Assembly: GCA_048885535.1 (NCBI GenBank)
Contig: JBHLLO010000013.1
Coordinates: forward strand, 1 to 60,459
DNA: 60,459 bases
Direction: 5' to 3'
From: Candidatus Hermodarchaeota archaeon
GTDB lineage: Archaea; Asgardarchaeota; Lokiarchaeia; Sigyniarchaeales; SOKP01
Shown here: piece by piece, positions 1,790 through 53,822 of the stretch
Numbering within the stretch: the stretch's first letter is position 1
Layout: each line of letters begins with the position of its first letter
The notes under the pieces: generated by a model
Databases searched by the model: none
What the model saw: the letters and a program-made list of their open reading frames with translations, nothing else
Told to the model about the DNA's origin: nothing
Translations under genes and position numbers: made by a program

Positions 1790-2003
1790 TTGAATCGCCT
1801 CTACGAATATTATTGAAGCTAACTTGATCCTTTATACAAATAATATAACAACTCTTATTTTTAAAATAGTCGTTTATGATATTATTCATAATGTTTGAAA
1901 ACTGAACCTAAAAGTTTTAAAATATACTTAAAAATGTTTTTAATAGTAATGATAATACATATGTATACAGCATAAATATATGTTAGTAGGTGAAATGTGA
2001 AAG

Positions 2004-2249
2004 TTGATTAAAAATTTAACTCAATTTTATAAAATTGGGAAAGAATTAGGATTAAAAAAAACTGAAATTAGTCGAACATTTTTGTTTTTAAAAAATCGAT
2101 CTTTGATAATCAAGATTTTACTGATACTTGTTCTATCTTTAATAACTATAGTTGTTGTTGTAATTATTGTGGTTGGGTCTCGATCTGTTTATCCAAGTGG
2201 AACATTATATTCAACGATTAAATTAAATGATTTTAAGAATAAAAAATGA
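2004..2249 (+). CDS. Small single-TM protein A (candidate precursor peptide), paralog of 4834..5121
   Basis: TTG start after AGGTGA; motifs YKIGKELGLxKxEI, hydrophobic helix and YPSGxxYSTxKLxDF shared with 4834..5121; ATGA overlap with the next gene. Confidence 0.8.
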   Translation: MIKNLTQFYKIGKELGLKKTEISRTFLFLKNRSLIIKILLILVLSLITIVVVVIIVVGSRSVYPSGTLYSTIKLNDFKNKK

Positions 2250-3580
2250 AGTTAAATGTTGGTTCTGGAAGAAGATATGAACCAGATTATTATAACATCG
2301 ATTTATATGAAGATATATTAGCAGATCAACAAATGTCTGCTATAAATCTCTCCTTCGCAGATAACTCTTGTGAAGAAGTTAAAGCAATTCAGTTGATTGA
2401 ACATATAAGTTTTTTTGAAACTTTCTATGTGTTAAGTGAGTTTTTTAGAGTCTTACAATCTGGCGGAGTTTTAATAATAGAAACTCCTGATATTGAAAAA
2501 GCGTTTCAATCATATTTAAATGGAAACCAAGAAAAGCAAAAAGAAGTCTTAGGATGGATATTTGGAATCCCCCATGAGGGTCTTCAGCATAAGATATGTT
2601 ATCCACTGGAATTGTTAGCAGAAATGTTATATAAAATCGGATTTACAGATTTAAAAGATAAAAAATATTATAATGCTGAATCAATACCTACTTTACGAAT
2701 TGAGTGTAAAAAAACTTCAAAAGAAAGTGTCTTTCAGTTTATTACTCATATTCGAAAACAAATGTTATTAGAAAACATAGTAGATTTTAAAGACTGCTTC
2801 CTATCAAAAGAGTATGAGGATCTGATAACATTCGTTTTATTAAAGTTAAAAAAATTTGAGGAAAGAAAAGATAAAAGGATTATCATTGAAATCTTTTCCA
2901 TACTTCTTTTAAGGGTACCACAAGTAGCTAAAATTTTTCTTAAAGCCATAGAGGATATTAATGTTCTTTCAAATTTGGAGATAAAATACTTCAATGAAAT
3001 AATTGAAAATATCATAAAATATGATCTTCCTAATATCTTACTTAATTCTCTTAAGAAAATGCCAACTAATCCAGGATCTCAAATGTTCGCATTTGCATCA
3101 ATAGAAGCATTAGGGAAAGGAATTATAGAGAAATTATTATATTTTAAAAGTGAAAAACAAGAACAACTAACTCGACTTAAAGAACTCTCAACAAAAAATG
3201 AACCAAATAATTTATTCTTTTTTTCTTCAAACATAATTCAAAGGAAATCTCAAGAATTTTTTTATCAAGGAATTAAGGAATTTTACAACCAAAATTATGG
3301 AATTGCTAAAGAGAAAATACAAAATTCAATTCAATTATTTAGGGATGATTTTCTTTATTACTGGAATTTAGCTAAAATATTTGTTAAATTGGACTTGAAA
3401 TCAAGCGCCTTAAAAAATTATAGGAGAACTTTAAGATTGTTAAATTTAAGTAAAATAGAGAATAAGAAGATGATTAAAAAAGATATCAATTCAGAAATGA
3501 AACGTGTAAAGAACTCAACAGAATCCTTGGCAAATCTTAATCCCATCATTAACCTTGATAAATATTTTTCTATAAATTAA
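2246..3580 (+). CDS. Class I SAM-dependent methyltransferase domain + C-terminal TPR-like helices
   Basis: LNVGSG motif I, NID, 'FADNSCEEV...LIEH', 'RVLQSGGVLIIETPD'; TPR-like 'YYWNLAKIFVKL...ALKNYRRTL'. Confidence 0.8.
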   Translation: MKLNVGSGRRYEPDYYNIDLYEDILADQQMSAINLSFADNSCEEVKAIQLIEHISFFETFYVLSEFFRVLQSGGVLIIETPDIEKAFQSYLNGNQEKQKEVLGWIFGIPHEGLQHKICYPLELLAEMLYKIGFTDLKDKKYYNAESIPTLRIECKKTSKESVFQFITHIRKQMLLENIVDFKDCFLSKEYEDLITFVLLKLKKFEERKDKRIIIEIFSILLLRVPQVAKIFLKAIEDINVLSNLEIKYFNEIIENIIKYDLPNILLNSLKKMPTNPGSQMFAFASIEALGKGIIEKLLYFKSEKQEQLTRLKELSTKNEPNNLFFFSSNIIQRKSQEFFYQGIKEFYNQNYGIAKEKIQNSIQLFRDDFLYYWNLAKIFVKLDLKSSALKNYRRTLRLLNLSKIENKKMIKKDINSEMKRVKNSTESLANLNPIINLDKYFSIN

Positions 3581-3632
3581 AAAATTATTTTATTGTTCAT
3601 AAGTATGAAATCATGAAATATCAGATTATTAT

Positions 3633-3650
3633 GAGAAAAGCTTTTAAATA
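3633..3650 (+). promoter_or_regulatory. Putative archaeal BRE-TATA promoter of the radical SAM gene
   Basis: GAGAAAAG followed by CTTTTAAATA, ~45 nt upstream of the ATG at 3694. Confidence 0.4.
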
Positions 3651-3693
3651 AATTTAATAAATTTGTATCTCAGAAAAAGAATCCAAAATTGTC

Positions 3694-4818
3694 ATGCCAA
3701 GTTTAATATCGCTTTTAACTCGTAGAATAAAGAATTCTTGCGCAGTCTGGGAGATTACTCTAAAATGTAACAGTAAATGCATTCATTGTGGGTCAAGGGC
3801 TGGTAGTGCGCGTTCTGATGAGTTAGATACAGAAGAGGCATTAACACTGGTAAAAGATTTGCACTCATGTGGTTATAAAGGCGTGGCATTAATGGGGGGA
3901 GAGCCTTTAATTAGGGAAGACTGGTTTGAAATTGCAAAAGAAGTCAAAAAACATAAAATGGAATTATCGATTGTTACTAACGGATTAAATGTCGTTAATC
4001 ATATTCATGATTTAAAAAGCTTAAGTATAGATTGTGTATCTTTAAGCCTAGATGGAGGAATTCCAGAAACACATGACTATCTTAGAGGGATTAAAGGAGC
4101 ATTTAATACTACTATAAATGCAATAAAGACATTAAGAAAAGAAAAACTTCCGGTGTCAATAATTACAACTATTAATAAAAGAAATTTAAAGGAAGTAGAT
4201 CTAATCAAACAGTATATTTTAGATCGAAATATTTCTTGGCAAATTCAATTAGCAGTCCCTATTGGGCGATTCCCTAAAGAGTTAATGATTTCTAAAGAAG
4301 AATATTATGCATTAGCGATGTATATTGCAATTAATGTAAAAAGATACTCCTATCGAAGGCTTCCTGTAATAGGAGCACATTGTTTTGGTTACTTTTCCAG
4401 ATTTATACCAAATTTAGGGTTAACACCTTGGATTGGATGCCAAGCTGGGTACTCTGTATTAGGTATTCAAAGCAATGGAAATATAAAAGGATGTTTAACT
4501 CTTTCAGATAGATTTATTGAAGGAAATGTAAGGACTCAAAGTTTGAAGGAAATTATATCAAGACCTCATGCTTTTAGCTATAATCGAAACTTTGAAAAGA
4601 AAAACCTCTACGGATCTTGTAGGAACTGTGACGTAGTAAAGGAATGTAAAGGAGGTTGTTTAGGGACAAGAAATGCTTTAAACTCCCTAAATGCACCCTT
4701 CTGTTTACGAGCAATAGAAAAACTTCATTTTAATTCCCAGATTTTTAAAATAAAAGGAAAATTGGATTCGTTTCTAGCAAAATATAAAAACCTATACTCG
4801 AAAATATTAAATATATAA
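3694..4818 (+). CDS. Radical SAM/SPASM-domain protein (peptide-maturase-like)
   Basis: CNSKCIHC radical SAM motif, GGEP; SPASM cysteines CQAG...GNIKGC and CRNCDVVKECKGGC...C. Confidence 0.9.
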   Translation: MPSLISLLTRRIKNSCAVWEITLKCNSKCIHCGSRAGSARSDELDTEEALTLVKDLHSCGYKGVALMGGEPLIREDWFEIAKEVKKHKMELSIVTNGLNVVNHIHDLKSLSIDCVSLSLDGGIPETHDYLRGIKGAFNTTINAIKTLRKEKLPVSIITTINKRNLKEVDLIKQYILDRNISWQIQLAVPIGRFPKELMISKEEYYALAMYIAINVKRYSYRRLPVIGAHCFGYFSRFIPNLGLTPWIGCQAGYSVLGIQSNGNIKGCLTLSDRFIEGNVRTQSLKEIISRPHAFSYNRNFEKKNLYGSCRNCDVVKECKGGCLGTRNALNSLNAPFCLRAIEKLHFNSQIFKIKGKLDSFLAKYKNLYSKILNI

Positions 4819-4833
4819 AATTTGTAATCAAAA

Positions 4834-5121
4834 ATGATTGATAATATCATTAGGATATATAAGATTGGGAAGGAATTAGGATTAACAAAAAGAGAGATTA
4901 CAACACAATTCTTTGTTAAAAAAACTAAATATCAGATATTATCTATGGTGATTCTTATACTTTTAATAATTATATCAGTTATCAGTGTATCTGTTCTTAT
5001 TGGATATGCTTATTTAGACATAGAAAGAAATACTTACCCATCTGGGGCAAGATATTCAACAGTCAAACTTAAAGATTTTCGTTTGAGAGGAAAAAAACTT
5101 AGTATTAAACGGAAAAGTTAA
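4834..5121 (+). CDS. Small single-TM protein B (candidate precursor peptide), paralog of 2004..2249
   Basis: YKIGKELGLTKREI, TM helix, YPSGARYSTVKLKDF; 15 nt downstream of the rSAM stop. Confidence 0.8.
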   Translation: MIDNIIRIYKIGKELGLTKREITTQFFVKKTKYQILSMVILILLIIISVISVSVLIGYAYLDIERNTYPSGARYSTVKLKDFRLRGKKLSIKRKS

Positions 5122-5182
5122 TTAAACAAGTTAAGGAACAAGAAAGATTGATTGTTAAGCAAAAAACGATTGTATTATGTTT

Positions 5183-6751
5183 TCAATTTAAATCTTTAAT
5201 TGTGTTGAACATTATGTCGAGTTGATCATAAATTTCTAGGTGATATTCTACTCCTATTTTGAAAAAGAGTAAAGAAACCTTTTTTTTCTCTAAATATTTG
5301 TTTAGGTTAAATTCTTCCATTATTTGGGACCAATTAGTGTCTTCTGACACTCTAATACCTATTAAAACAACTCTATTTTCTTTTAGGTTGGTTATGATTT
5401 TTACTACAATTTTTTTCCATTGAGGGTCAATATGTTTTTTATCTCTAGCATCAAAAATTATAAAAATCCCATCAGAATCCGATATTTCAAAATCATCAAA
5501 AAGAAAATTTTTTATAACTAAACCATTTGAAAATTCATAGACTTTTTTTTCTTTATCGTCTTCAATTTTCTCACAATCACATAATTTATTAATTTCCGTT
5601 AAGATCTGCAAACCAGGACTCCAGAAAGGATTTTCAGTAATAAATGAAATAACTAATCTTTCTTTTATATCCAAAATAGCATTAATAATATCCATTAAAT
5701 CGACTCTTAATCGCTGTTCCTCTAAATCTTTAGCTCTCATAATGTAATGATATGCAATTAAGTTAAAAGCGTCAGGGATATTTTCACCTGTTAATGCACT
5801 AGTCTCAATATAGGATATCCCTCCTTCATAATGACTTCCGCTTAATTCATTAGCCAGTCTTACGCCCTCTTCATAGTTCACGAGTCTCTCGTTTTCTAAA
5901 TCGATTTTATTTCCTACAATCATAATTGGTATTTGCTTTGCTACTAGATACTTTTTGACTTCATCGTACCAACTTTTAACATTCAAAAATGATTCTTTAT
6001 TAGTTACATCAAAAACAATGAAGGTCGCTTGAGTGCCTGAATAATACGTTTTCCTTAATCTCTTAAAGAATTCTTGAGCACCAATATCATATAAAACAAA
6101 AATTACTTGATTTTCATATAATTCAATCGAGTGAGACATTACATCAATACCAATAGTAGAACGATAATCATTAGAAAATTTTCGTTCTACAAATTGTCGT
6201 ATTATTGATGTTTTACCAACTTCATGATCACCTATCAGCACACATTTGAATTTATACTTTCCACCTGAATCTAGTCGCATCTGGTAAATCTGTTCTTTAA
6301 TTCTTCCCAAATCCACAGAAAGGTTTGTTTCAACTTCAAAATTAGGTATAGTCAGTTGAATAAGGTCACCCTCTTTTGCTGTTAATATTTGAGCCGTTTT
6401 TTCCGCAAGAAAAAATGCGTAAGGAGAAATCCTATCAATTGAACCTAAGGTATTTAGGACTATAGTTAGGGTTGTATTTTCATCAATAGATATAAATAAT
6501 AAGCGGTATTTCTCCGTATCAAAACTTGAACTTCCAAATCTCTTGAATGCAAATTCATTTCGAATTCTCTCTAAAATTGGATTGATAAGTGCCGTTAAAA
6601 CAGACACTAATTCCATGTCAACAGTAATTTTCTTCTCTCCAGCAATTACAAAACCTTCATGGTCAGATATAATAACAGCTTCAATATCAGCATCAATCTC
6701 CAAAAATTTTGTCAATATTTCCTTAAAGAGAGGATCAATATTTATTGCCAT
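5183..6751 (-). CDS. Roadblock/LC7 + Rab-like small GTPase + degenerate GTPase-like domain fusion (paralog of 224..1789)
   Basis: IEAVIISDHEGFVIAGEK; GDHEVGKTS, STIG, YDIGAQ, NKID, ETSAL; WSPG and DGIFIIFDAR shared with the paralog over the full length. Confidence 0.85.
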   Translation of the reverse strand: MAINIDPLFKEILTKFLEIDADIEAVIISDHEGFVIAGEKKITVDMELVSVLTALINPILERIRNEFAFKRFGSSSFDTEKYRLLFISIDENTTLTIVLNTLGSIDRISPYAFFLAEKTAQILTAKEGDLIQLTIPNFEVETNLSVDLGRIKEQIYQMRLDSGGKYKFKCVLIGDHEVGKTSIIRQFVERKFSNDYRSTIGIDVMSHSIELYENQVIFVLYDIGAQEFFKRLRKTYYSGTQATFIVFDVTNKESFLNVKSWYDEVKKYLVAKQIPIMIVGNKIDLENERLVNYEEGVRLANELSGSHYEGGISYIETSALTGENIPDAFNLIAYHYIMRAKDLEEQRLRVDLMDIINAILDIKERLVISFITENPFWSPGLQILTEINKLCDCEKIEDDKEKKVYEFSNGLVIKNFLFDDFEISDSDGIFIIFDARDKKHIDPQWKKIVVKIITNLKENRVVLIGIRVSEDTNWSQIMEEFNLNKYLEKKKVSLLFFKIGVEYHLEIYDQLDIMFNTIKDLN

Positions 6752-6875
6752 AGTAATCTATCAGCTGTGTTGATGTTATAAATAAATTAGAACTTGTTAA
6801 AAGTTTTAATAATACAAAAGAACATAAACTTAAAAGTAGTAATTTTATATTTTATTAAAGAATTTTCTGATTGAA

Positions 6876-7454
6876 ATGGCTAACTGTATAATTTGTCACT
6901 TGGGAATTAGTGAAAAAGAAGAAAATACCTCTCAAGAATGTCCAAATGGGCATCCAACTCATGGAGATTGTTTAAAAGAATGGTTAACTCATGCTTCCAA
7001 TTGCCCTCTATGTAATGAACCATACCCCCAAGAAGTAATTGACCAATTTCAAGAATACATAGAGGAGAAAGAATTAGAAAAGAAGAAAGCTATTGAGGAA
7101 GAAGCTAAAAGGGAAAATGAAGAAAAAGTAAAGAAGGCTACAGATAAAATTGCTTTAATGAAATTTATTGAATCGATTGAATCATTAATTGAACAAAAAG
7201 AGTATGAGTATGCATTATCCAGATTAGAGATGCATGATGAAGAACACATTTCCACAGAAAGAGGAAGAAAAATTCTTTTTCTTAAAGGGAAAGTTAATTA
7301 TCTTAAGGGAAGATATGATTTAGCAATAAATTATTTGTTCAAACTTGTTAAGGAGAAATTTGATTATCCAGATGGTTTTTTGTATCTTGGAAAGTCATAT
7401 GAAGCACTTGGTTTAACGGATAAGGCAAAATGGGCTTACGATAGAATTAATTAA
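6876..7454 (+). CDS. RING-H2 zinc finger + coiled coil + TPR protein (putative E3 ligase-like)
   Basis: CIIC...CPNGHPTHGDCLKEW...CPLC; TPR-like 'LFLKGKVNYLKGRYDLAINYL' and 'FLYLGKSYEALGLTDKA'. Confidence 0.8.
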   Translation: MANCIICHLGISEKEENTSQECPNGHPTHGDCLKEWLTHASNCPLCNEPYPQEVIDQFQEYIEEKELEKKKAIEEEAKRENEEKVKKATDKIALMKFIESIESLIEQKEYEYALSRLEMHDEEHISTERGRKILFLKGKVNYLKGRYDLAINYLFKLVKEKFDYPDGFLYLGKSYEALGLTDKAKWAYDRIN

Positions 7455-7480
7455 AGCTCTCGTTTTATTATATTTAGATT

Positions 7481-8884
7481 ATGAAAAATTTTTGTTTAAC
7501 AATAGCAGGTTCAGATCCTACTTCAGGAGCGGGAATTCAAGCAGATATCCGAACATTCGATAGATGCGGAGTTCACCCTTTTTCTGTAATTACCGCTATT
7601 ACATATCAAACAACTACGCAATTCTTTGGGTATAAATCTCTAACGGATAATTTAGAGAAGCAATTAAACGCTATATTTGCTGAATATCCAGTTAAGTTTG
7701 TTAAAGTTGGCATGATTCCTGATATAAAAGCACTTGAAATTATTATTGATTATATAAAAAAATATGATTTATTTGTTGTTTATGACCCTGTTACTGTCTC
7801 AAGTGCAGGAAAAAGACTTTCAATAGAGGGCCTTGAACTAGAGATAGAAAAGAAGTTATTTCCGAATGTAAAGATTATTACTCCCAATCTCTCTGAGGCT
7901 TTGCTTTACTCAAACATGAATTATGAGGAATACAATTTAGATAATTATAAAAAAATTGGTAAATTATTACTTGAAAAACTTTATAGTAAATCTTCAGATA
8001 TTAATGAAGAAAAAGCAGTTGTAATTAAAAGCTTGGGGCTGAATGCTAAAAAACTATTAGATTTGGCCGTTTTAAATAGAAAAGCTAAAGGGCAATTTAA
8101 CCTAGAGTTTGATTTCTATGAAAAATTAAGAATAGACATACAGGGTAATATTCATGGTTCGGGTTGTGTCTTTTCTTCTGCGATTACTGCCTTTTTAACT
8201 AAAAATTATAATATAAAAGAGTCAATTGGATTAGCAGAGAAATTTTTTAATGATAAATTTCAAGATTATATAAATTTGCCTTATCAAGGTAAAGTTATAG
8301 ACTTAACTATCCCTGAAGAGAAATTGAAGGTTATAAATCAAATTAAAGAAATATACAATTTCATCTCTAATATAAAAAAGTTTACGAAATTAATACCCGA
8401 AGTAAGATTGAATATTTCATGTTCTCTACCTAATGCTACAGAAAAAAATGAGATCGCAGGAATAGATGGTCGAGTGACAATAGTGAACGGTTTTCCAAAA
8501 GCATCTGGCGAAATTAAATTTGGAGCCTCAGATCATACTGCCAGACTTATATTATCTGCTAAAAAGTTTGATAATTCAATAAATTTAGTTACAAATCTTA
8601 GGTATAGCGAAGATTTAATTAAAAAACTTAAAGAGATATCAAGTTTAAAACTTTATGAATTTGTAAGGGATACAGAATCCTTTCAAACTAGAATAAAGGA
8701 AGATTCTACTATGCAATGGCTAATTGAAAAAACTATAGAAGATACAAATTGTATTCCTGACATAATTTGGGATAAAGGAGAAATAGGAAAAGAACCTATA
8801 GTAAGAGTTTTTGCTAAAAATTCAAAAGATATGATTAATAAACTTCAAAATATTATAAAATTGATTGAGGATTTTAAAAATTAA
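7481..8884 (+). CDS. thiDN: Bifunctional HMP/HMP-P kinase and thiamine-phosphate synthase (ThiD-ThiN fusion)
   Basis: TIAGSDPTSGAGIQAD, HGSGC ribokinase-type motif; C-terminal ThiN motifs LIPEVRLN, FGASDHTAR, PDIIWDKGEIGKEP. Confidence 0.9.
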   Translation: MKNFCLTIAGSDPTSGAGIQADIRTFDRCGVHPFSVITAITYQTTTQFFGYKSLTDNLEKQLNAIFAEYPVKFVKVGMIPDIKALEIIIDYIKKYDLFVVYDPVTVSSAGKRLSIEGLELEIEKKLFPNVKIITPNLSEALLYSNMNYEEYNLDNYKKIGKLLLEKLYSKSSDINEEKAVVIKSLGLNAKKLLDLAVLNRKAKGQFNLEFDFYEKLRIDIQGNIHGSGCVFSSAITAFLTKNYNIKESIGLAEKFFNDKFQDYINLPYQGKVIDLTIPEEKLKVINQIKEIYNFISNIKKFTKLIPEVRLNISCSLPNATEKNEIAGIDGRVTIVNGFPKASGEIKFGASDHTARLILSAKKFDNSINLVTNLRYSEDLIKKLKEISSLKLYEFVRDTESFQTRIKEDSTMQWLIEKTIEDTNCIPDIIWDKGEIGKEPIVRVFAKNSKDMINKLQNIIKLIEDFKN

Positions 8885-9363: not shown

Positions 9364-10677
9364 TTATAACAAATTTTTAGAAGTCTTTTTTTCTAATGCA
9401 TCTTTCAATATTTTAATAGCGCAGAATTCACCACACATACTACAAACATCATTTTCAATATAGCCATTTCTATAGTGCTTTTCTCTAGATAAATTGGGAT
9501 CGATCGAATTTTTTATCATTTCTTCCCAATTTAAATTCTTCCGAGCCATATCCATTCTATAATCCCAATCTGAAACCTTTTTACCATATTTTGCAATATT
9601 TACTGCATGGGCCGCAATTTTGGAAGCGATCACCCCTTGTTTCACTTCTTCTTTATCAGGTAAAGCTAAATGTTCAGAGGGAGTAACATAACATAAATAA
9701 TCAGCCCCTGCTAGTCCAGCAAGGACTCCTCCAATTGCACTTACAAGGTGGTCATAGCCAGGAGCTATATCAGTGACTAATGGTCCAAGCACGTAGAACG
9801 GAGCTCCATTACATAAAGATTTCATTAGTTTAATATTTCTTTCAATTTCATGGGCAGGAATATGCCCCGGACCTTCAACCATAACTTGGATGTTTTTATC
9901 CCAAGCTCGTTTAACTAGTTTAGATATCTCAATTAATTCTTGAATTTGAGCATAGTCTGTTGAATCAAAAATACATCCTGGTCGCATTCCATCTCCGAGT
10001 GAAAGTGTAAAATCATATTCTGCTGCCAATTCAAGTAGATAATCATAATCAGTATTGAAGGGATTTTCTAAATCATTTTCAAGTATCCAAGCCGCTAAGA
10101 AAGTCCCACCCCGGGATACTATACCCATATGTCTTGGATGTTCCTTTAGATAATTAACAATTTCTTTAGTTACTCCAACATGAATAGTAAAAAAATCTAC
10201 TCCCTCTTTAGCTTGTTCTTCAACTATTTTAAACAAATCATCTTCATCAAAATTAATTATGGCTCCTTTTTCTTCGATAGCTCGAAGAGCAGATTGATAA
10301 ATAGGTACAGTACCTATTGGTACGTTCAATTCATTTAGGATGAGGCTTCGAATCTTTATTACATCTTGCTCAGTTATCCCTGTACTTAAATCCATAACTG
10401 TATCTGCGCCATATTTTACAGCTATTTTTGCTTTTTCTACTTCACCTTGAATATTGCATACTTTTTTACTGGAACCAACGTTTGCATTAATTTTAACTAG
10501 TAAGCCTTCTCCAATCCCCAATGGATTAGTATCTCGTTTGTTAGATTTAGGAATAATAATACGCCCATTTGCAATGCCACGACGTATGAATTCAACTTCG
10601 ACTTGTTCTTTTTTTGCAACAATCTCCATTTCTTCTGTTATTTCGCTATTTTTAGCAGATTTCATTAAAGTAGACAA
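9364..10677 (-). CDS. thiC: Phosphomethylpyrimidine synthase
   Basis: KINANVGSS, DTVMDLSTG, GIVSRGG, SLGDGMRPG, EGPGH, YVTPSEHL, C-terminal CSMCGEFC. Confidence 0.97.
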   Translation of the reverse strand: MSTLMKSAKNSEITEEMEIVAKKEQVEVEFIRRGIANGRIIIPKSNKRDTNPLGIGEGLLVKINANVGSSKKVCNIQGEVEKAKIAVKYGADTVMDLSTGITEQDVIKIRSLILNELNVPIGTVPIYQSALRAIEEKGAIINFDEDDLFKIVEEQAKEGVDFFTIHVGVTKEIVNYLKEHPRHMGIVSRGGTFLAAWILENDLENPFNTDYDYLLELAAEYDFTLSLGDGMRPGCIFDSTDYAQIQELIEISKLVKRAWDKNIQVMVEGPGHIPAHEIERNIKLMKSLCNGAPFYVLGPLVTDIAPGYDHLVSAIGGVLAGLAGADYLCYVTPSEHLALPDKEEVKQGVIASKIAAHAVNIAKYGKKVSDWDYRMDMARKNLNWEEMIKNSIDPNLSREKHYRNGYIENDVCSMCGEFCAIKILKDALEKKTSKNLL

Positions 10678-12143: not shown

Positions 12144-15100
12144 ATGAAAAATTTAAAGAGGTATAAATTGAAAGCTTTGTTTTTGAGCTGTTGTATTTTA
12201 TTAGGTATAATTTTCCCTGTACTTTTCAATTTTCTAGATATAAGTGATTATAATTCTATTAATGACTCTAGTAATACATTTATCTATTCTTTAAAAGGAA
12301 GAGAATACCGAGCAAAATATATCACTAGTAAAGATGTAGAAGAGATGAAACAGAGAATCGATACCCAACCAAAAAGTTCTAGATCTAGGTCTAATGTTAT
12401 CATTGATGGGCATGGAACCGGATATGCTGTAAATCCTGAGGATTTAGATGCACTTGTTGGTAAAATTTCGCTCTTAGAAGTTATTCCTAAAGATAGTCAG
12501 AAATATCGGGCTACTGCAGATCTTTCAACCGAGATTTACTTTCCAACAGTGGGAGATCAAGGTTCTCAAGGCTCTTGTTCGGCTTGGGCAAATGCTTATT
12601 ATGCATATGGATATTTAGAAGCTAAGGATTATGGTTGGGATGCAAGTTCCGGAAACCCTAATTATCTATTGAGTCCCGCATGGGCATATAACATTGTTGC
12701 AGCTTATGATTATGGTTCAATTCCTTATGAAGTCGCTCAGGTTTTATTAGACTGGGGAGTACCAACACTCAGTGCAATGCCCTATGATGATAGTGATGTC
12801 GACAGTTGGGGTAATGAAACTGCTTGGCGACAAGCTCCATATCACAGACCGTTTAATTATACCCTCATCACATACACAGGACCTGCAACAATCGATCTAA
12901 TGAAGAGTTTGATTACTGCGGGAATACCTGTCACTATTGGTATTGATGCATATCAATTTTCAAATGGATTAGATGAAGGAACAATGGACTTCATTTTATC
13001 CTCAGATGAATATGACTCTACTTCGCTTAATCACGCTCAATGCCTTGTAGGGTTTGACGATGCTATTACAGAGGGAAGTGATGTTGGTGCTTTCCGAGTT
13101 GTGAATTCATGGGGTGATATTTGGATGGATAACGGCTATTATTGGCTAACATATGATGCCTTTGCAGAATTTGCAGGTCTCGGTGGGCAAGTGATTATGT
13201 ATATAGAAGATAGAATCGATTACAATCCAGATATAATAGCTACTTGGGAATTTAGTTCTGCTCCTACTAGAATGGATGATATTATAACTTTAGGTGTAGG
13301 ACCTCATGATAGTCCTTTTAATACAACGATACCTTTTTATGATGGTGATACCAATAACCTCTTTCCTGACTTTATGGCACTCGATATTTCAGATTTTTAC
13401 TCTTATTATACTATTGATAATGATGTCTTCTTTTTCTTAGAAATTGGTCCTTCTGATACAACTGGAACAATCTCATCATTTAAACTCGAAAGATATCTAG
13501 GAGGAGTACTCCAAGAAATATCAAAAGAGTCACCAAATGTTCCAAAAGATACTCCAGGATATGTTAATGCGACATTTAAAATTTTCCTTCATGAGTTAAG
13601 AGTTACGTTAGATGTACCAACTAATCCTACAATCCATAATTCTTATGAAGTTAAAGCAATGGTCATTAATAATGGTGCTTCTGATGAAATTGATGTAGAT
13701 TTTGAACTCTTATTAAATGGTCTATCTGTTGATTCAATGACTATCTCAAGTTTACTATCGGGTGCAAATGCAACCATTAATTATAGCTGGACACCAACAG
13801 AATATGAAGTGTATAATTTTACCGCGCAAGCACCACCAATTTCAGGTGAAACTTTTAAATCAAACAATTATGCAACTGAAATTCTATACATATTAGGTCC
13901 AATTTTCTTTGATGACTTCGAAAGCGGTTTGTCTAAATGGGTATCTATTACAGGTTTATGGCATTTAACAAATACTAGCAGTTTTTGGCCCGATTCCTAT
14001 CATTCCCCCATACATTCCATGTGGTTTGGAAATGAATCTACTGGAAACTATGATACAGGTCTCCGTGAAGTAGGTGATATGACATCTATTCCTATTAATT
14101 TAACGGATGTTGACGTCGCCTTCCTAGAATTTTACCATTGGCGAGCAGGAGAAGGATATGGATGGGATATCTCTTCCGTATATATCTCTATTAACGGTAT
14201 TGATTGGGATCTAATTTATCAAGTTGATGATTCCTATATCCCGCCATGGGAAAAAGTATCTGTGGACATTTCTGCTTATGTTGGAAATCCATCAGTACAA
14301 GTAAGGTTTGAGTTTGATACAATTGATGAAATAGCTAATAATTATCGAGGATGGTTAATAGATGATGTAAGTGTTAAAGGGACAGGAATACAAATTCCTC
14401 ATGATTTACGTGTTTCATTAGAAGTTCCTGAAGATCCTGAGATTTTTACCACTTATACGATTAATGCAACAGTTACTAATATAGGGACGAACAGTGAATC
14501 AGATGTAGAATTATTCCTTTATCTTAATGGTGTTGAGGTGTATTCATCATATTATCCAAGTTTTCCTATATATTCAAGTCAAGGTTTTTCCTACATATGG
14601 ACACCTACTACCTATGGTGAATATAATTTTACTGCATATGCACCTCCAGTGCCCAGTGAAGAATTTACACATGATAATTTGGTGACTGAATTTATTCACC
14701 TTCATGAGATTAATTTGTTTGATGGGATGTTCCTTGATTATTCATTTGAAATATTTGGTACTACTTATTCTTGGAACTCCTTATATTCAGAACTCTCAGA
14801 TGGAATCTTTCATCATGATTATTCAATATATCAAGGCGGCTCTCTTGCTACTGCGGGTGATTGGGATGTAGATAGTCAGACAAGAATTATGTCTGATTCG
14901 ACAGGAGGCTTTTCTTTTGGCTCAGGTACCCACACACCCATGTGGATCTTTACAGACATTTCAATCGGGGACTCAATCCCAATAGCAATTGATGCTGAAG
15001 GAGATCATATATTTAATGTAACAGGAGATTTTCTTTATGATTTACCCGGTTTTGATCTTGTTGATGTATGGATTTTAGAGGATTTAACTCTACCTGGAGG

Positions 15101-16415
15101 GATTGCATGGTATGAAAAAAGTACTGGTATTCTATTGTACGGTGATTTTCTCTATATGGGTGGAACAAATAATTATATTTTTGATTTGATAGATACTAAC
15201 GCTCCATTCGAATACATAATTTTTGATCATGAACTAAAAGTTTACTTAGAGACACCAATATCACATAAAATTGATGAGACTTATCTTATTAATGCAACTG
15301 TTAAAAACAACGGTCTAAATGATGAAACTAACGTGGAACTATTCCTTTATCTCGATGAGTTACTAGTTGCATCAATTACAATCCCTACTCTCAGTGTTGG
15401 AATGGAACAAACAATTCAATATATTTGGACACCAACCGAATATGGAACATACAATTTTACAGCATATGCTCCTGCTGTTCCGCTTGAATCATATATAGAA
15501 AATAATAAAAAAACGACATTTGTGTATTTATTCGAAACTGCATTGTTTGATGGGTTGTATATAGAGCATATTTTTTCACAAGGAGGATTTGATTACAATA
15601 CAAAATTTATATACACATATCTTACTGCTAGTTTATATCAAGTGACTTTTGAAGTCAAATATGGGGGAACCACAGTGATCTATACTTGGATGGTTGATGC
15701 TTTGACAAGGATAATGTCAGGAGGTTCAGTATTTGGGGATGGAGCTCATACAAATGCATGGATATTTACTAATACATCATTATTTGATACGATCCCTATC
15801 GCAGTTGACGGAGAAGGAGACCATGATTTTTATGTGGCACGAGAACTAATATACGATCTTCCTGGCTTTGGTCAGGTTGAAGTTTGGGAACTTGAAGATT
15901 TAGATGTATCAGGAGGGATAGCATGGTATGAAAAGAGCACAGGAATTCTCTTAAAGGGCACTTTCTTATATTCTGGAGGGCTATTTAATTATACTTTTGA
16001 GTTTGTAGATACTAATGCAGAATTAAATATTATTGAAGCACCAGGTCCTTTTACATTATCATCGAATGCTGAAAATCCTGACAAAAATGGAATCTTCGAT
16101 CTTATATGGACAGCAGCTTCTAGAGCAAACAATTACTCAGTATATCGTAGTTCCAGTTTCATTACGCATATTGATGGAAGTCTTACCTTGTTAGCAGATG
16201 AAATCACTGATTTAACTCTAGCATTAAGTGGATATGAAGATGGAACCTATTACTTCATTATAGTTGCGCATAATGATTATGGTGATAGGCTTTCAAATTG
16301 TATTTCAGTTATAGTATTATTAGAAGGAATTCCAGGTTATAATTTGTTCTTAATTATTGCTACCTTGGGAATTGTTACCATTCTAATAGTTAAAAAGAAG
16401 TACAAAACAAAATAA
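12144..16415 (+). CDS. Surface-anchored papain-like (C1) cysteine peptidase with CARDB/Ig-like repeats and Loki-CTERM anchor
   Basis: N-terminal signal/TM; QGSQGSCSAW (Cys), NHAQCLVGFDD (His), VVNSWG (Asn); three 'H[ED]L.V.L..P...WTPT.Y..YNFTA' repeats; C-terminal GIPGY-TM-KKK. Confidence 0.9.
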   Translation: MKNLKRYKLKALFLSCCILLGIIFPVLFNFLDISDYNSINDSSNTFIYSLKGREYRAKYITSKDVEEMKQRIDTQPKSSRSRSNVIIDGHGTGYAVNPEDLDALVGKISLLEVIPKDSQKYRATADLSTEIYFPTVGDQGSQGSCSAWANAYYAYGYLEAKDYGWDASSGNPNYLLSPAWAYNIVAAYDYGSIPYEVAQVLLDWGVPTLSAMPYDDSDVDSWGNETAWRQAPYHRPFNYTLITYTGPATIDLMKSLITAGIPVTIGIDAYQFSNGLDEGTMDFILSSDEYDSTSLNHAQCLVGFDDAITEGSDVGAFRVVNSWGDIWMDNGYYWLTYDAFAEFAGLGGQVIMYIEDRIDYNPDIIATWEFSSAPTRMDDIITLGVGPHDSPFNTTIPFYDGDTNNLFPDFMALDISDFYSYYTIDNDVFFFLEIGPSDTTGTISSFKLERYLGGVLQEISKESPNVPKDTPGYVNATFKIFLHELRVTLDVPTNPTIHNSYEVKAMVINNGASDEIDVDFELLLNGLSVDSMTISSLLSGANATINYSWTPTEYEVYNFTAQAPPISGETFKSNNYATEILYILGPIFFDDFESGLSKWVSITGLWHLTNTSSFWPDSYHSPIHSMWFGNESTGNYDTGLREVGDMTSIPINLTDVDVAFLEFYHWRAGEGYGWDISSVYISINGIDWDLIYQVDDSYIPPWEKVSVDISAYVGNPSVQVRFEFDTIDEIANNYRGWLIDDVSVKGTGIQIPHDLRVSLEVPEDPEIFTTYTINATVTNIGTNSESDVELFLYLNGVEVYSSYYPSFPIYSSQGFSYIWTPTTYGEYNFTAYAPPVPSEEFTHDNLVTEFIHLHEINLFDGMFLDYSFEIFGTTYSWNSLYSELSDGIFHHDYSIYQGGSLATAGDWDVDSQTRIMSDSTGGFSFGSGTHTPMWIFTDISIGDSIPIAIDAEGDHIFNVTGDFLYDLPGFDLVDVWILEDLTLPGGIAWYEKSTGILLYGDFLYMGGTNNYIFDLIDTNAPFEYIIFDHELKVYLETPISHKIDETYLINATVKNNGLNDETNVELFLYLDELLVASITIPTLSVGMEQTIQYIWTPTEYGTYNFTAYAPAVPLESYIENNKKTTFVYLFETALFDGLYIEHIFSQGGFDYNTKFIYTYLTASLYQVTFEVKYGGTTVIYTWMVDALTRIMSGGSVFGDGAHTNAWIFTNTSLFDTIPIAVDGEGDHDFYVARELIYDLPGFGQVEVWELEDLDVSGGIAWYEKSTGILLKGTFLYSGGLFNYTFEFVDTNAELNIIEAPGPFTLSSNAENPDKNGIFDLIWTAASRANNYSVYRSSSFITHIDGSLTLLADEITDLTLALSGYEDGTYYFIIVAHNDYGDRLSNCISVIVLLEGIPGYNLFLIIATLGIVTILIVKKKYKTK

Positions 16416-22575: not shown

Positions 22576-23472
22576 TTATAATAGATTAGATGCGTATTGT
22601 TCAACAAGGTATTCAATTTTCGATTGATCTAGCACTTCTTCATCGAGTTCAGGACACATATGTTCTAAATGGCATAGTAATTCGTATAAACCTTCTTCAG
22701 CTTGCTTGAGATTTACATTATCACTTTCGTGTATGACGATAGAGCCTAAAAGGTGTTTAGAGCGTTTAAAAATTATTAGATTTTCACCCATCTTTAATTG
22801 ATTTAATTCAGAATTGAATGATTCTTTCACAAAGCTATTAATGGCTGAAAACAATCCCCCTTGTAAAATTTGTTGGCTATCAGAAGAAGTTAAAGGAATA
22901 CCTCCTTGGTCAAATACGGTGACAGCCTTTATATTAAGTTTCTTAGTTAATTGCTTACCAGTAAGTCTATAGTAGATTTTCATAAAGGCAGGTACAATTC
23001 CATAACCAGTTTTGCAAGAAATAGGTATAATTTCAAAAGAGGCAATTTTAGATAAATCAAGAGCGTCGATTATTTCACCAACTTGAGCTGTTGGTCTTAA
23101 ATCGTACTTATTTGCTAGAACAATCAATGCTTTTTTCTTGAAAACCGATGATAACTTCCACAGCTCATCCTTTGCTTCATTAAATCGTTCTCGAGCATAG
23201 GCATCAATCATAAAGATTATACATTCTGCATCTGACATCTCATGGAGCCATAATTCACGAAAATCTTTCTGACCTCCCATATCCATAATATTTATACGAA
23301 TCCCTTGGACTTCCATTTGAGTTAGCTGCTTTCCCATAGTTGGAGTGTGTTCAATAAAAGTTCCATTTTGTAAAAATGATACAAGAGTGGTTTTACCTGC
23401 TGAATCTAATCCACAAATAACTACTTTTTTTTCTTTAGTAAATATTCGTTTTAATATGTCTTTAACTCCCAT
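22576..23472 (-). CDS. Arf-like small GTPase fused to a C-terminal longin-like domain
   Basis: Basic amphipathic N-terminus MGVKDILKRIF; GLDSAGKTT, PTMG, DMGGQ, NKYD, SCK; longin pattern 'VTVFDQGGIPL...LQGGLFSAINSFVKESF...QLKMG'. Confidence 0.88.
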   Translation of the reverse strand: MGVKDILKRIFTKEKKVVICGLDSAGKTTLVSFLQNGTFIEHTPTMGKQLTQMEVQGIRINIMDMGGQKDFRELWLHEMSDAECIIFMIDAYARERFNEAKDELWKLSSVFKKKALIVLANKYDLRPTAQVGEIIDALDLSKIASFEIIPISCKTGYGIVPAFMKIYYRLTGKQLTKKLNIKAVTVFDQGGIPLTSSDSQQILQGGLFSAINSFVKESFNSELNQLKMGENLIIFKRSKHLLGSIVIHESDNVNLKQAEEGLYELLCHLEHMCPELDEEVLDQSKIEYLVEQYASNLL

Positions 23473-43970: not shown

Positions 43971-44020
43971 AAGAATCTATTGTGAAAAGATATGCTTTTT
44001 CACAACTATAATAGATTCTT
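43971..44020. promoter_or_regulatory. Imperfect long inverted repeat (putative operator)
   Basis: AAGAATCTAT...ATAGATTCTT outer arms and TTGTGAAAA...TTTTCACAA inner arms. Confidence 0.5.
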
Positions 44021-44040
44021 TAAATTTAAATCTTTACCCT

Positions 44041-44098
44041 TCTTTATAAATGCATGTTAACATTTCGTAACCGTCTTTATAAATGAAGGTTAAAATTT
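44041..44098. repeat. 25-bp direct repeat containing TTTATAAA (tandem promoter/operator)
   Basis: TCTTTATAAATGCATGTTAACATTT (44041) and TCTTTATAAATGAAGGTTAAAATTT (44074); 22/25 identical, 33-bp period. Confidence 0.65.
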
Positions 44099-44182
44099 AA
44101 ATAGAAGATATAATTTTGCAAAAATAGAGATATCAGTATTGTTGAAGTGATATCGAAAAAAACAGAAAAAAAATGCTAAGAA

Positions 44183-44416
44183 GTGAAAAAATTGGCAGAT
44201 ATGACACTAAACGCTTTAGGAAAGAAATGTCCGATGCCTGTCCTCATGACCAAAAAAGAACTAAAGAACATGAGTTCAGGTCAAACACTTGAGCTTGTAG
44301 TTGACGATAAGGGTGCATTAAAAGATGTTCCTGCCTTGCTATCCAAAACTGGTGATGAATTGGTAGAAACAAAACAAGATGATGGTAGAATTACATTTGT
44401 GATTAAGAAAGCGTAG
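44183..44416 (+). CDS. tusA: Sulfur carrier protein TusA family
   Basis: LNALGKKCPMP motif. Confidence 0.92.
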   Translation: MKKLADMTLNALGKKCPMPVLMTKKELKNMSSGQTLELVVDDKGALKDVPALLSKTGDELVETKQDDGRITFVIKKA

Positions 44417-44439
44417 AAATTTTGAAGGAGAAAATTAGA

Positions 44440-44808
44440 ATGTCAACATATACTTTCATGATAGCTACTGAACCCTATAAGTTTGAAGCAGTTGACAGTT
44501 TGCTTAACTTATGTAAAGCAGTGTTACAAAAAGGCCATACTATTAAGGGAATATTTTTTTATGGTAGTGGAGTCTATAATATCAAGAAAGATATTGAAAC
44601 TGGTATTACAGTTCGTAATTTACCTGCACGTTTGGAAGAATTCATTAAAAAGAATCAGATTCCGGTAACGGGATGCACGACATGGATAGGATTGTGTGGA
44701 TTAAAAGAACAGTGTTTTATTGATGGGGCAAAAGAAGAAGGGTTGGGTGAACTATCTAATTGGACAGCAGAATCAGATAAATTAATAATGTTTGGAACAG
44801 GGGGATAA
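44440..44808 (+). CDS. dsrE: DsrE/TusD-like sulfurtransferase subunit
   Basis: GHTIKGIFFYGSGV, active-site-position Cys (VTGCTTW), GLGELS; ATG 44440 follows GGAG. Confidence 0.85.
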   Translation: MSTYTFMIATEPYKFEAVDSLLNLCKAVLQKGHTIKGIFFYGSGVYNIKKDIETGITVRNLPARLEEFIKKNQIPVTGCTTWIGLCGLKEQCFIDGAKEEGLGELSNWTAESDKLIMFGTGG

Positions 44809-44813
44809 AGAAA

Positions 44814-45182
44814 ATGATCAACTCGGTCGTAATAATAAGTGACCAATCTCCAGTCGGAAAGAACTCTGCCATTGAGGCCCTAAGGTTGGGGTCTGGATTT
44901 AGGGGATTAGGGGAAGAGATTGACTGCCAGGTGGTACTTATGGGTGATGCGGTTTACTTATTAAGTAAACGCGCAGATCCCTCTAAAGTTGGAGTCGATT
45001 CTTTTGATGAACCAATGGAAATGGCAGAATTGTCAGATTTAGAAATACTGGTACTTGATAGTGCAGTAGAGGATGCTGGACTAACTAAAGAAGATCTTAT
45101 AGAATACGAGGGATTAAAGATTATTAATCTCGAGGCTCTTACAGAAATAATAGATAATGCTGATACTATATTTAGGTTTTAA
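44814..45182 (+). CDS. dsrF: DsrF/TusC-like subunit
   Basis: SPVGKNSAIEALR, VLMGDAVY; lies between dsrE and dsrH. Confidence 0.8.
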   Translation: MINSVVIISDQSPVGKNSAIEALRLGSGFRGLGEEIDCQVVLMGDAVYLLSKRADPSKVGVDSFDEPMEMAELSDLEILVLDSAVEDAGLTKEDLIEYEGLKIINLEALTEIIDNADTIFRF

Positions 45183-45196
45183 GGTGGTGAACAAAG

Positions 45197-45538
45197 GTGG
45201 AGGAGGTTTTTGATATAGTTTATCTTTTCGGATTTAGCCCTAGATACGGGAATGAGTTAAGCCGATTAATACCGATTCTTAAAAATCAATCACAAAATGG
45301 AAAACAGATAGGTATAATATTCATTCATGATGGAGTTATAGGTGCTAATTCGAAAGGAAAAATGACTGATTCAATGAGTGAGATTAAGAGCTTAAAACTT
45401 AAGAGATATGTTATGATTCCTGATTTAACTGCAAGAGGTATTCCACTAGAGCATGTTCAAGAAGATGTACACCCCATAGAATATATGGAGCTTGTTGACA
45501 TAATAGAGAATAGCCATAAGGTTATCTCATGGATGTAA
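45197..45538 (+). CDS. dsrH: DsrH/TusB-like subunit
   Basis: FIHDGV, DLTARGI, Y.ELVD....KVISW. Confidence 0.85.
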   Translation: MEEVFDIVYLFGFSPRYGNELSRLIPILKNQSQNGKQIGIIFIHDGVIGANSKGKMTDSMSEIKSLKLKRYVMIPDLTARGIPLEHVQEDVHPIEYMELVDIIENSHKVISWM

Positions 45539-45672
45539 TCTGAAAAGAAGAGGAAATTATTAGAATTAATTTAAAAATATTTTGAAAAAACAAACAAATC
45601 ACGGTTAACAAATAGTTAACTCAAATATTAAGAAAATCAAAACAAACAAATCTAAAAAAAAAGGTGTAAAAT

Positions 45673-46089
45673 TTGGTAGAAAAAATGAATTTTATTGTAA
45701 AAGATAAATCTTTTGAAAAATTTATGATGATGACAATCTTGGGAACCACTGGGAGTGCTATGGATGTTGAGATGAATTTCTTTTTCACTTTTTGGGGATT
45801 AAACCTCTTAAAGAAAAAATTTAAGCCTAAGGTTGCTGGGATGCCAGCACCCATGAAAGGAATGGCAGCTGGGATGTTCAGGAAAAAATTAAAGAAATTT
45901 GGTATGGAAGATCCATGGGCCTTGATCAAAGAAGCTATTGACGAGGGAAAAATGAAACTATATCCATGTCAAATGACAATGGATTTAATGAACATTAAAA
46001 GAGAAGAAATGTGGGATTTTGTAGAAGATCCCATTGGTGCTGCTGGATTTATAGAAATGTCTGATGGTGGCCAAGTAATTTCATTATAA
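45673..46089 (+). CDS. DsrE2-like (DsrE/DsrF family) sulfur carrier
   Basis: FFFTFWGLNLLKK, YPCQMTMDLM, GAAGF. Confidence 0.85.
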   Translation: MVEKMNFIVKDKSFEKFMMMTILGTTGSAMDVEMNFFFTFWGLNLLKKKFKPKVAGMPAPMKGMAAGMFRKKLKKFGMEDPWALIKEAIDEGKMKLYPCQMTMDLMNIKREEMWDFVEDPIGAAGFIEMSDGGQVISL

Positions 46090-46127
46090 ATTTTTTTTTT
46101 ATTTTATATTTAAGAGAGGATGATAAT

Positions 46128-46688
46128 ATGTCTGATGTGGAAGAAGAACAACATCGGGAATTTATGATTGATGAGGATTTTGACTCAGAATTTTTTAGAA
46201 ATATTGAACGCAGATCAAATATTTTTAAATGTATCCAATGTGGTACTTGTACTGCAAGTTGTGAAAGTGGAAGATGGACCGCATTAAAAACACGTTCAAT
46301 TATAAGAAAAGTTGTCTTAGGAGATTTATCGGTATTGAAAGATCCTGATATATGGTTGTGCACAACATGTTATCAGTGTTATGAACGATGTCCGCGAGAT
46401 GTAAGACCTACAGATGTTATTATGGAATTAAGAAACTATGCTACTAAATTAGGGAATATTTCTCCTAATCATAGAGCTGTCGTAGGGTATTTGAAGCAAT
46501 TTGGTCATGCTGTACCGATAAATGATGAAATTAGAAAGAGAAGAGTCGAGTTAGGTTTAGAAGAATTACCCCCTACAGCATTTAAGTTTAAGCAAGAGGG
46601 GGATGATAAAGATTTAAAAAAAATAGAAGAAAAAATGTTTGATTTACCTCCAGTTAAGGAGGAAGAAAAGAAAAAAGAGGAGGCATAA
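46128..46688 (+). CDS. hdrC: Heterodisulfide reductase subunit C
   Basis: CIQCGTCTASC and WLCTTCYQCYERCPR; GHAVP. Confidence 0.93.
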   Translation: MSDVEEEQHREFMIDEDFDSEFFRNIERRSNIFKCIQCGTCTASCESGRWTALKTRSIIRKVVLGDLSVLKDPDIWLCTTCYQCYERCPRDVRPTDVIMELRNYATKLGNISPNHRAVVGYLKQFGHAVPINDEIRKRRVELGLEELPPTAFKFKQEGDDKDLKKIEEKMFDLPPVKEEEKKKEEA

Positions 46689-46691
46689 AAG

Positions 46692-51307: not shown

Positions 51308-51309
51308 AT

Positions 51310-53778: not shown

Positions 53779-53822
53779 ATAGAATTTTATTAAAAATTAA
53801 GAATAAGTTAAGGAGAAAGACC

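Follow-up and report, generated by a model that had tools for sequence, protein, structure and literature searches.

A candidate peptide-maturation cassette of Asgard archaea with a radical SAM/SPASM enzyme related to bacterial spliceases

Genes and enzymes of the cassette

Four neighboring genes on the + strand of an Asgard archaeal genome are described here. They lie in a window of 60,459 nucleotides (nt), i.e., the whole stretch of DNA that was analyzed, from Candidatus Hermodarchaeota archaeon (assembly GCA_048885535.1, contig JBHLLO010000013.1, positions 1 to 60,459). As called from open reading frames (ORFs) in the window, they encode, in this order, a small protein (pepA), a methyltransferase, a radical S-adenosylmethionine (SAM) enzyme with a SPASM domain (rSAM), and a second small protein (pepB). 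A first-pass annotation had proposed that they form a system like those for ribosomally made peptides that are altered after translation (RiPPs), in which two membrane-anchored peptides are modified by the enzymes. The four ORFs were found where it had placed them, and its observation as a whole was confirmed. In our assessment, the chances are about even that these genes form a mobile peptide-maturation cassette whose precursors are processed by the rSAM and methyltransferase pair.

The first gene, pepA (2004-2249), encodes 81 amino acids (aa) from a TTG start and consists of a leader block, one hydrophobic helix, and the core Y-P-S-G-T-L-Y-S-T-I-K-L-N-D-F. Its stop codon overlaps the start codon of the methyltransferase gene as ATGA (2246-2249), which is the coupling described in the first-pass annotation. 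The methyltransferase (2246-3580, 444 aa), characterized by Pfam, an AlphaFold2 model and conservation among orthologs, carries a helical tail. The rSAM enzyme (3694-4818, 374 aa) has no extra N-terminal domain. Its stop codon (4816-4818) is separated by the annotated 15 nt from the ATG (4834) of pepB (4834-5121). This gene encodes 95 aa, in which the same leader block and a single hydrophobic helix are followed by the core Y-P-S-G-A-R-Y-S-T-V-K-L-K-D-F and then by a basic tail. A TTG start is credible for pepA because orthologs of this gene in two cassettes of another genus (loci L091 and L092) start at the same aligned residue. Upstream of pepA, the region 1883-2003 (+ strand) contains an A/T-rich, TATA-like stretch near 1916-1925 and the sequence AGGTGA 11 nt 5' of the TTG. 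This leader region is part of the sequence that has homology with the other genus's cassettes, moves with the cassette, and probably holds its promoter. The entire cassette lies within an inserted segment of 3307 nt (1878-5184, no strand assigned), delimited by blastn against empty sites (see below). The segment has no further + strand ORF of at least 50 aa, and thus no PlpY-like ORF, and no protease or transporter gene was present in the ORF list of the cassette. An Rfam scan of the window gave no family at the gathering score, and a look-up of RNA runs listed none for 2004-5121.

In Pfam, the rSAM enzyme matches Radical_SAM (86.9 bits), SPASM (35.7 bits), and also Fer4_12. It contains the CX3CX2C motif at C25, C29 and C32 and the seven-cysteine SPASM motif at C249, C267, C309, C312, C318, C322 and C337. 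All ten of these cysteines are invariant in 40 orthologs, as expected of SPASM maturases in general. Among NCBIfam models, it scores best with TIGR04103 (215.7 bits, where the cut-off is 725), then with TIGR03913 (184 bits, cut-off 591.75), TIGR04133 (150 bits), AhbD (144 bits), and, much lower, PqqE (77 bits). This order bears out the resemblance to splicease-type maturases (peptide-splicing rSAM enzymes, discussed below) that the first-pass annotation had named. The same two models matched all 40 aligned orthologs with the best E-values of any family, none of them above cut-off.

A profile of the 40 orthologs, searched against 1.84 billion representatives, gave 3864 matches at E<=1e-30. From the best 150 cluster representatives, 83 were scanned against families, and for nearly all of these TIGR04103 or TIGR03913 was the sole strong family; near-members included P0308 (550 bits) and P0297 (532 bits). 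At 61 positions that are invariant in Asgard rSAM enzymes, TIGR04103/TIGR03913-like relatives and relatives fused to Xaa-Tyr-Gly regions share 47-54 residues, whereas 17-34 are shared by the remaining SPASM proteins of the window's genome and 38 by an AhbD-like protein. A grouping with cofactor or lipid families, which would have spoken against the annotation, was therefore not seen, either in this comparison or in the NCBIfam scores (216 bits for TIGR04103 versus 144 for AhbD and 77 for PqqE). Three bacterial relatives, P0236, P0274 and P0306, consist of an rSAM enzyme fused C-terminally, past a hydrophobic segment, to long D/E/A-Tyr-Gly-Val repeat regions, and in these proteins enzyme and substrate appear to be contained in one chain. 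All three come from bacterial metagenomes, and P0236 is named as from a Deltaproteobacteria metagenome-assembled genome.

The structural model of the rSAM enzyme (pLDDT 85.4) is closest to the solved folds of PqqE, SuiB, SkfB, CteB and anSME; in Foldseek, it matched solved maturases with TMq of 0.6-0.7 and E-values down to 3e-16. Among solved structures, the best sequence match to the family profile was SkfB (95.7 bits). Neither sequence nor fold searches revealed a splicease structure in the PDB, and PMC11414181 states that none was available. Because no splicease has been solved, the solved structures cannot tell splicing from cross-linking.

The Pfam assignment of the methyltransferase is marginal (Methyltransf_11, 21.4 bits versus a cut-off of 21.2) and covers only profile positions 47-95. 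Its AlphaFold2 model (pLDDT 91.9, pTM 0.87) has a class I SAM-methyltransferase fold at residues 1-159, followed by an all-helical region (161-422) with a TPR-like end (332-426). In VIA-align, residues 1-159 superimposed on 3sm3 (Z 15.3, rmsd 2.8 A, 150 aligned residues), which supports the class I fold. Residues 332-426 matched the idealized TPR protein 1na3 (Z 13.3, rmsd 2.1 A, 86 residues), at about the level that can be reached by helical-repeat arrangement alone. No Pfam TPR family was detected in the 444-aa protein at E<=0.1; in its Atlas cluster, 15% of the members have TPR_2. Invariant residues in 38 orthologs are G6 and G8 of motif I, N17, D19, E52 and H53. In P0194 (728 aa) and P0206 (a cluster of 5; 834 aa), the methyltransferase with its helical domain is naturally fused to the rSAM enzyme. 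The fold was also considered as a clue to the class of substrate and was set aside: Foldseek and VIA-align gave only generic class I matches, among which the RiPP methyltransferases CgnL, CypM and LahSb were no better than others.

Candidate precursor peptides and the conserved triad

In a single BLASTP comparison, pepA and pepB shared 38/84 identities (45%, E 2e-14). Identical residues lie in two blocks, YKIGKELGL.K.EI at the N-terminal side and YPSG..YST.KL.DF at the C-terminal side, and the hydrophobic stretch between them is poorly conserved. Its best 19-residue Kyte-Doolittle means are 3.67 in pepA and 3.32 in pepB. The alignment thus agrees with the annotated pair of shared blocks around a variable transmembrane (TM) helix. 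The genome contains only these two copies; a third profile match (E 0.25) lies inside a 369-aa frame. Pfam and NCBIfam yielded nothing meaningful for the two peptides, whose leader belongs to neither the Nif11 nor the nitrile-hydratase class. In an alignment of 62 single-TM peptides, the leader glycine G12 and the tyrosines Y68 and Y74 are invariant, and G16, L17, E21, G71, D81 and F82 are nearly so. A TM-like segment is present in 121 of 123 family members, and the charge bias around the helix weakly indicates an N-in, C-out orientation.

Since short ORFs are common in A/T-rich DNA (the G+C content of the window is about 28-30%) and pepA needs a TTG start, the small ORFs might be chance frames, with the two enzymes being the only real genes. 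This explanation is hardly credible in view of 62 database relatives with E-values down to 1e-23 in a search of 5.8 billion sequences, all of them unnamed and without a Pfam domain. The proteins are conserved across phyla with invariant residues, the position and orientation of the genes are also conserved, and in many loci they overlap the methyltransferase gene by start and stop codons. In our view, these conservation data already refute the chance-frame explanation.

Three architectures were found in the peptide family. The first comprises 55-65-aa precursors from Thermoplasmatales and Methanobacteriota loci, which have the same leader and core but lack the TM helix; two 83-aa TM-less proteins, P0176 and P0180, carry the leader and three tandem 15-residue cores. 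The second, i.e., leader, one helix, and core, is that of pepA and pepB. The third is represented by longer proteins (about 150 aa) that have several hydrophobic segments and end in x-Y-[G/N/D/S]-V-[Y/F]. Common to all three are the leader and the tail tyrosine motif, which points to the second tyrosine (Tyr2) as the common target. The TM-less relatives and the triple-core members support the division into leader, TM helix and core that was made in the first-pass annotation. In four of the loci with 55-65-aa TM-less precursors (L153, L154, L156 and L157, from Methanobacteriota and Thermoplasmatales), two tandem rSAM genes precede the methyltransferase gene. No conserved transporter or protease gene was found beside the precursor genes in L153, L154 and L156.

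The core has the spacing Y-x-x-G-x-x-Y. The fetched loci gave 141 distinct cores, a sample weighted toward the peptide family of the window, and the G is present in 130 of them. In this sample, Tyr2 is followed by Ser in 89 cores, Gly in 33 and Ala in 11; for the 62 database relatives, the counts at this position are 47 Gly, 9 Ser and 4 Ala. Some cassettes with one rSAM gene encode Tyr-Gly cores alongside Tyr-Ser or Tyr-Ala cores. The residue before Tyr2 varies freely (L in 62, R in 23, K in 16 and F in 13 of the 141), and D and F follow the core in 126 and 129 cases, respectively.

The conserved triad consists of the rSAM/SPASM enzyme, the methyltransferase with its TPR-like helical tail, and one to five precursor genes, which occur as tandem arrays. 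With a threshold of E<=1e-40, 112 of the phylum's 400 sampled genomes gave an rSAM ortholog; a few of these, at 31-39% identity, are probably paralogs. The profile of the two peptides matched 97 of the 400 at E<=0.01. Both were present in 76 genomes, rSAM only in 35, a peptide match only in 20 (all but one weak), and neither in 268. Peptide matches were strong (E<1e-6) in 56 genomes, and the rSAM enzyme is present in 55 of them; in the exception, the peptide is located at a contig end. Thus, the search for linkage suggested in the first-pass annotation found no peptide homologs that occur apart from the enzymes.

Forty rSAM loci from the phylum list, 20 distant and 20 close, were fetched for inspection. 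A methyltransferase of at least 400 aa is encoded in 37 of them; two of the three exceptions are at a contig edge, and in the third the gene is about 5 kb away. Peptide-family ORFs were found in 39 of the 40 loci (34 strong and 5 weak, the latter of the approximately 150-aa kind), i.e., small neighbors of the type expected for a maturase. The genes usually run in the order rSAM, peptides and methyltransferase, and the start of the methyltransferase gene is overlapped by the final peptide gene; in the window and its closest relatives, the order is peptide, methyltransferase, rSAM and peptide. One locus (L089, G003:C101) has an rSAM gene split into two frames of 130 and 170 aa next to an intact methyltransferase gene and two intact peptide genes; a frameshift or decay of the copy may account for the split. 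When the methyltransferase alignment was searched against all prokaryote species genomes, 80 loci were obtained, many of which overlap genomes already counted; the rSAM gene was within 4 kb in 70 of these and a peptide match in 64. Hosts outside Asgard archaea included Thermoplasmatales/Thermoplasmata, Methanobacteriota, Aenigmatarchaeota, Nanohalarchaeota and Undinarchaeota, as well as two bacteria, one Chloroflexia and one Patescibacteria. This linkage of the triad supports the RiPP-like cassette proposed in the first-pass annotation.

The small proteins might instead be membrane adaptors, with the enzyme pair modifying a lipid, a cofactor or another protein. The TM-like segment in nearly all members fits such a role, as do the existence of archaeal lipid-modifying rSAM enzymes (GDGT-MAS is among the weaker fold matches) and the lack of protease and transporter genes in the cassette. 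However, TM-less members retain leader and core beside the same enzymes, one of them with three tandem cores, and it is the tail motif, not the helix, that is conserved. The tandem arrays of precursor genes also argue against adaptors, and the rSAM enzyme, although below the peptide-maturase models, scores well above the lipid and cofactor ones. An adaptor role is accordingly improbable, and the small proteins are probably substrates of the rSAM/methyltransferase pair.

Insertion site and other genes of the window

The cassette is bordered by two paralogous genes for Ras-family GTPase proteins, both on the - strand, which are given as context: a 521-aa protein on the left (224-1789; Pfam Ras, 164.6 bits) and a 522-aa protein on the right (5183-6751). 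The paralogs have a central Ras-family domain, and Pfam is blank in their N- and C-terminal thirds. Each of the genus's 41 other genomes has this gene pair, and in 30 of them the two genes are direct neighbors, 99-182 nt apart. Blastn comparison with the empty sites of two genus relatives showed that 3307 nt in the window replace about 41 nt of spacer. The window flanks 1-1877 and 5185-7850 align with positions 4359-2706 and 2664-1 of one empty site (L110, G262) and with 899-2776 and 2818-5497 of the other (L111, G261).

From 1883/1885 to 5097/5117, the window has 78-82% DNA identity to the cassettes of L090, L091 and L092, which belong to another genus and whose flanks are not homologous. In a tree of the 40 rSAM enzymes, the window enzyme forms a fully supported clade with those of L090, L091 and L092. 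An approximately unbiased (AU) test, run after the tree was seen and on a group defined by taxonomy, rejected a single clade for the eight rSAM enzymes of the genus (log-likelihood difference 353, p 1e-80). Judged by these sequence comparisons, the cassette is horizontally mobile and has been exchanged between Asgard genera, and the window's genome provides a clean case with a mapped empty site. No integrase, target-site duplication or terminal inverted repeats were found at the cassette or its borders, where the only repeated features were the GTPase and peptide paralogs.

Three other relatives, L114 (G245), L115 (G268) and L116 (G256), carry a different 3.3-kb insert in the same spacer, with genes for a small GTPase of 180 aa and for two membrane-like proteins that are 354-377 aa long. 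The spacer between the GTPase genes therefore looks like a recurrent insertion site. The GTPase genes are not part of the system, because they are adjacent without the cassette in relatives and are not found beside the cassettes of the other fetched loci. They had been considered as system components together with a neighboring RING-TPR protein, but both were absent from the other 40 loci except for a 175-aa GTPase-like ORF in L107. The RING-TPR neighbor (6876-7454, + strand) is a 192-aa protein that carries a RING finger at its N-terminus (zf-RING_2, 31.9 bits), matches TPR models weakly, and is conserved beside the GTPase pair in relatives.

Several genes elsewhere in the window were also recorded. 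Thiamine genes encode a phosphomethylpyrimidine kinase-ThiN fusion (7481-8884, + strand) and ThiC (9364-10677, - strand). A 1423-aa protein (12144-16415, + strand) combines a papain-family (C1) peptidase domain with three CARDB domains, and a 298-aa Arf-family small GTPase (22576-23472, - strand; 121.4 bits) has a C-terminal extension. The stretch 44000-54000 has a higher G+C content (0.33-0.37), a strongly positive GC skew and all of its genes on the + strand; it includes iron-sulfur/flavin oxidoreductases and a protein with an FrhB-like domain.

Proposed chemistry and relation to known systems

PlpX belongs to the SPASM subclass IPR026482 and excises tyramine at Xaa-Tyr-Gly (PMC11002830), and splicing by PlpX-type rSAM enzymes is a loss of C8H9NO at this site (PMC11002830, PMC5995677, PMC10533398, PMC11626197). 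In binary systems, which lack the Y protein, the leader helix binds the splicease and sits in the activator site (PMC11414181). According to PMC11626197, an earlier survey had detected clusters for spliceotides in genomes of bacteria and archaea.

With Tyr-Gly present at the homologous position in many relatives and the enzyme akin to TIGR04103 and TIGR03913, splicease-type excision of tyramine is our leading, though unproven, guess for the chemistry, which we would place a little below an even chance. In the proposed mechanism, pepA and pepB would be precursors made of a leader, a membrane helix and a core of about 15 residues. The N-terminal block, h-x-x-h-G-x-x-L-G-L-x-x-x-E/D-h, would by analogy serve as a recognition or activating element, bound by the rSAM enzyme, the TPR-like tail, or both. 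The rSAM enzyme would then attack the second invariant tyrosine, which occurs as x-Tyr-Ser in the window and as x-Tyr-Gly in many relatives, and the methyltransferase would subsequently add a methyl group. The hydrophobic segment, with its weakly predicted N-in, C-out orientation, would put the tail across the membrane, where it may be displayed or cut free. The first-pass annotation had taken the missing YG motif as an argument against a splicease. Its observation holds for the cores of the window; as an argument, it is weakened by Tyr-Gly in 47 of the 62 relatives and in the TM-less Thermoplasmatales precursors, and by the mixed cassettes.

A number of points weigh against tyramine excision, which is inferred from comparisons of sequences and models. 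The sites in the window are L-Y-S (pepA) and R-Y-S (pepB) and thus lack the Xaa-Tyr-Gly that marks spliceotide precursors. The rSAM enzyme scores at less than one third of the curated cut-offs and is therefore a relative, not a member, of TIGR04103 and TIGR03913. We take IPR026482, the PlpX subclass, to be the same family as TIGR04103, and TIGR03913 enzymes may or may not be spliceases. A simple excision gives no function to the first of the invariant tyrosines or to the Y-x-x-G-x-x-Y spacing, and no counterpart to the methyltransferase was present in the spliceotide literature examined. A cytoplasmic rSAM enzyme must act before the tail crosses the membrane. Co-occurrence counts overstate independence because the genomes are related. 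Finally, a Tyr-Gly motif is no guarantee of splicing, as illustrated by the unmodified DYG site of RcsA (PMC11626197).

The same cassette and substrates could be used for other tyrosine chemistry, i.e., a C-C or ether cross-link of the cyclophane type through one or both invariant tyrosines, or hydroxylation or epimerization, with the methyltransferase capping a phenol or carboxylate. We consider this main alternative, which takes in the cross-linking or methylation proposed in the first-pass annotation, less likely than excision, but it would explain features that are superfluous for a simple excision, namely two invariant tyrosines and a near-invariant glycine at fixed spacing, and it is favored by the conserved D and F after the core and by the Tyr-Ser site of the window. 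The closest solved folds, SuiB, SkfB, CteB and PqqE, are cross-linking or thioether-forming maturases, and the rSAM enzyme is far under the cut-offs of the splicease-linked models; yet those structures do not discriminate, as no splicease is among them, and in sequence the enzyme is closer to TIGR04103/TIGR03913-like and x-Tyr-Gly-fused relatives than to any cross-linker model. Moreover, the residue before Tyr2 varies freely, and the approximately 150-aa relatives lack the first tyrosine and retain only x-Tyr-[G/N/D/S] near the C-terminus.

A more elaborate form of the excision hypothesis, which we regard as speculative and unlikely, can be outlined as follows. A splicease-like enzyme with relaxed sites (Tyr followed by Ser, Ala or Gly), together with a methyltransferase that is adjacent or fused to it, would equip the short outer tail of a membrane-anchored peptide with a warhead in the form of a methylated ketoamide (beta-amino acid). 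The built-in helix would replace the exporter and protease of bacterial systems, and the product would therefore be displayed on, or shed from, the Asgard surface, e.g., as a protease blocker. The 3.3-kb unit would move between genera as a complete module, without an integrase.

A literature search, which did not extend to the survey of Scott et al. 2022 and its supplements, identified no paper on this cassette; TIGR04103 and TIGR03913 are named in none of the papers searched, and none of them describes a RiPP-like precursor whose leader and core are separated by a membrane anchor. The family is large, as it occurs in about a quarter of the 400 sampled Asgard genomes, in Thermoplasmatota, in DPANN lineages, and in a few bacteria. 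If the chemistry is splicing, ribosomal beta-amino-acid/ketoamide formation would extend to archaea, the site rule would be wider than Tyr-Gly, and a methylation step would be added. The TM-less precursors would be easy test substrates.

Among known systems, the overall fold, the CX3CX2C motif and the auxiliary clusters are shared with SuiB, SkfB, CteB, PqqE and anSME, which also act on neighboring small peptides. However, their sequence relation to the cassette enzyme is weak, with SkfB being the best, the cassette rSAM enzyme has no RiPP recognition element (RRE) domain, and the chemistries of these enzymes are cross-links and thioethers. The type I systems of Pleurocapsa, PlpX/PlpY/PlpA and PcpXYA (PMC11002830, PMC5995677, PMC10533398), have an rSAM/SPASM enzyme of the nearest named subclass, and the loss of C8H9NO that they carry out is the best candidate reaction for the cassette. 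In contrast to them, the cassette has no PlpY-like ORF, its leader is of neither the Nif11 nor the nitrile-hydratase type, and its rSAM enzyme reaches only 215.7 bits with TIGR04103, for which the cut-off is 725.

Also among the closest known arrangements is that of the binary spliceotide systems RhaX/RhaA, RcsX/RcsA and RasX/RasA of Rheinheimera (PMC11414181, PMC11626197). In both cases, an rSAM/SPASM enzyme occurs without a separate small partner protein, and the precursor combines an N-terminal element with a C-terminal core in which Tyr is followed by a small residue and preceded by a variable one. In addition, the best models of the cassette enzyme are the splicease-linked TIGR04103 and TIGR03913, and many homologous cores have x-Tyr-Gly. 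Unlike the Rheinheimera systems, the precursors in the window have an x-Tyr-Ser site, a second invariant tyrosine six residues upstream, and a membrane helix between leader and core. The cassette also differs in its obligatory methyltransferase partner with the TPR-like tail, sometimes fused to the rSAM enzyme, in its archaeal hosts, and in an rSAM enzyme far below the family cut-offs. On these comparisons, we place the cassette as a relative of bacterial backbone-splicing systems, and not as a member of the spliceotide family.

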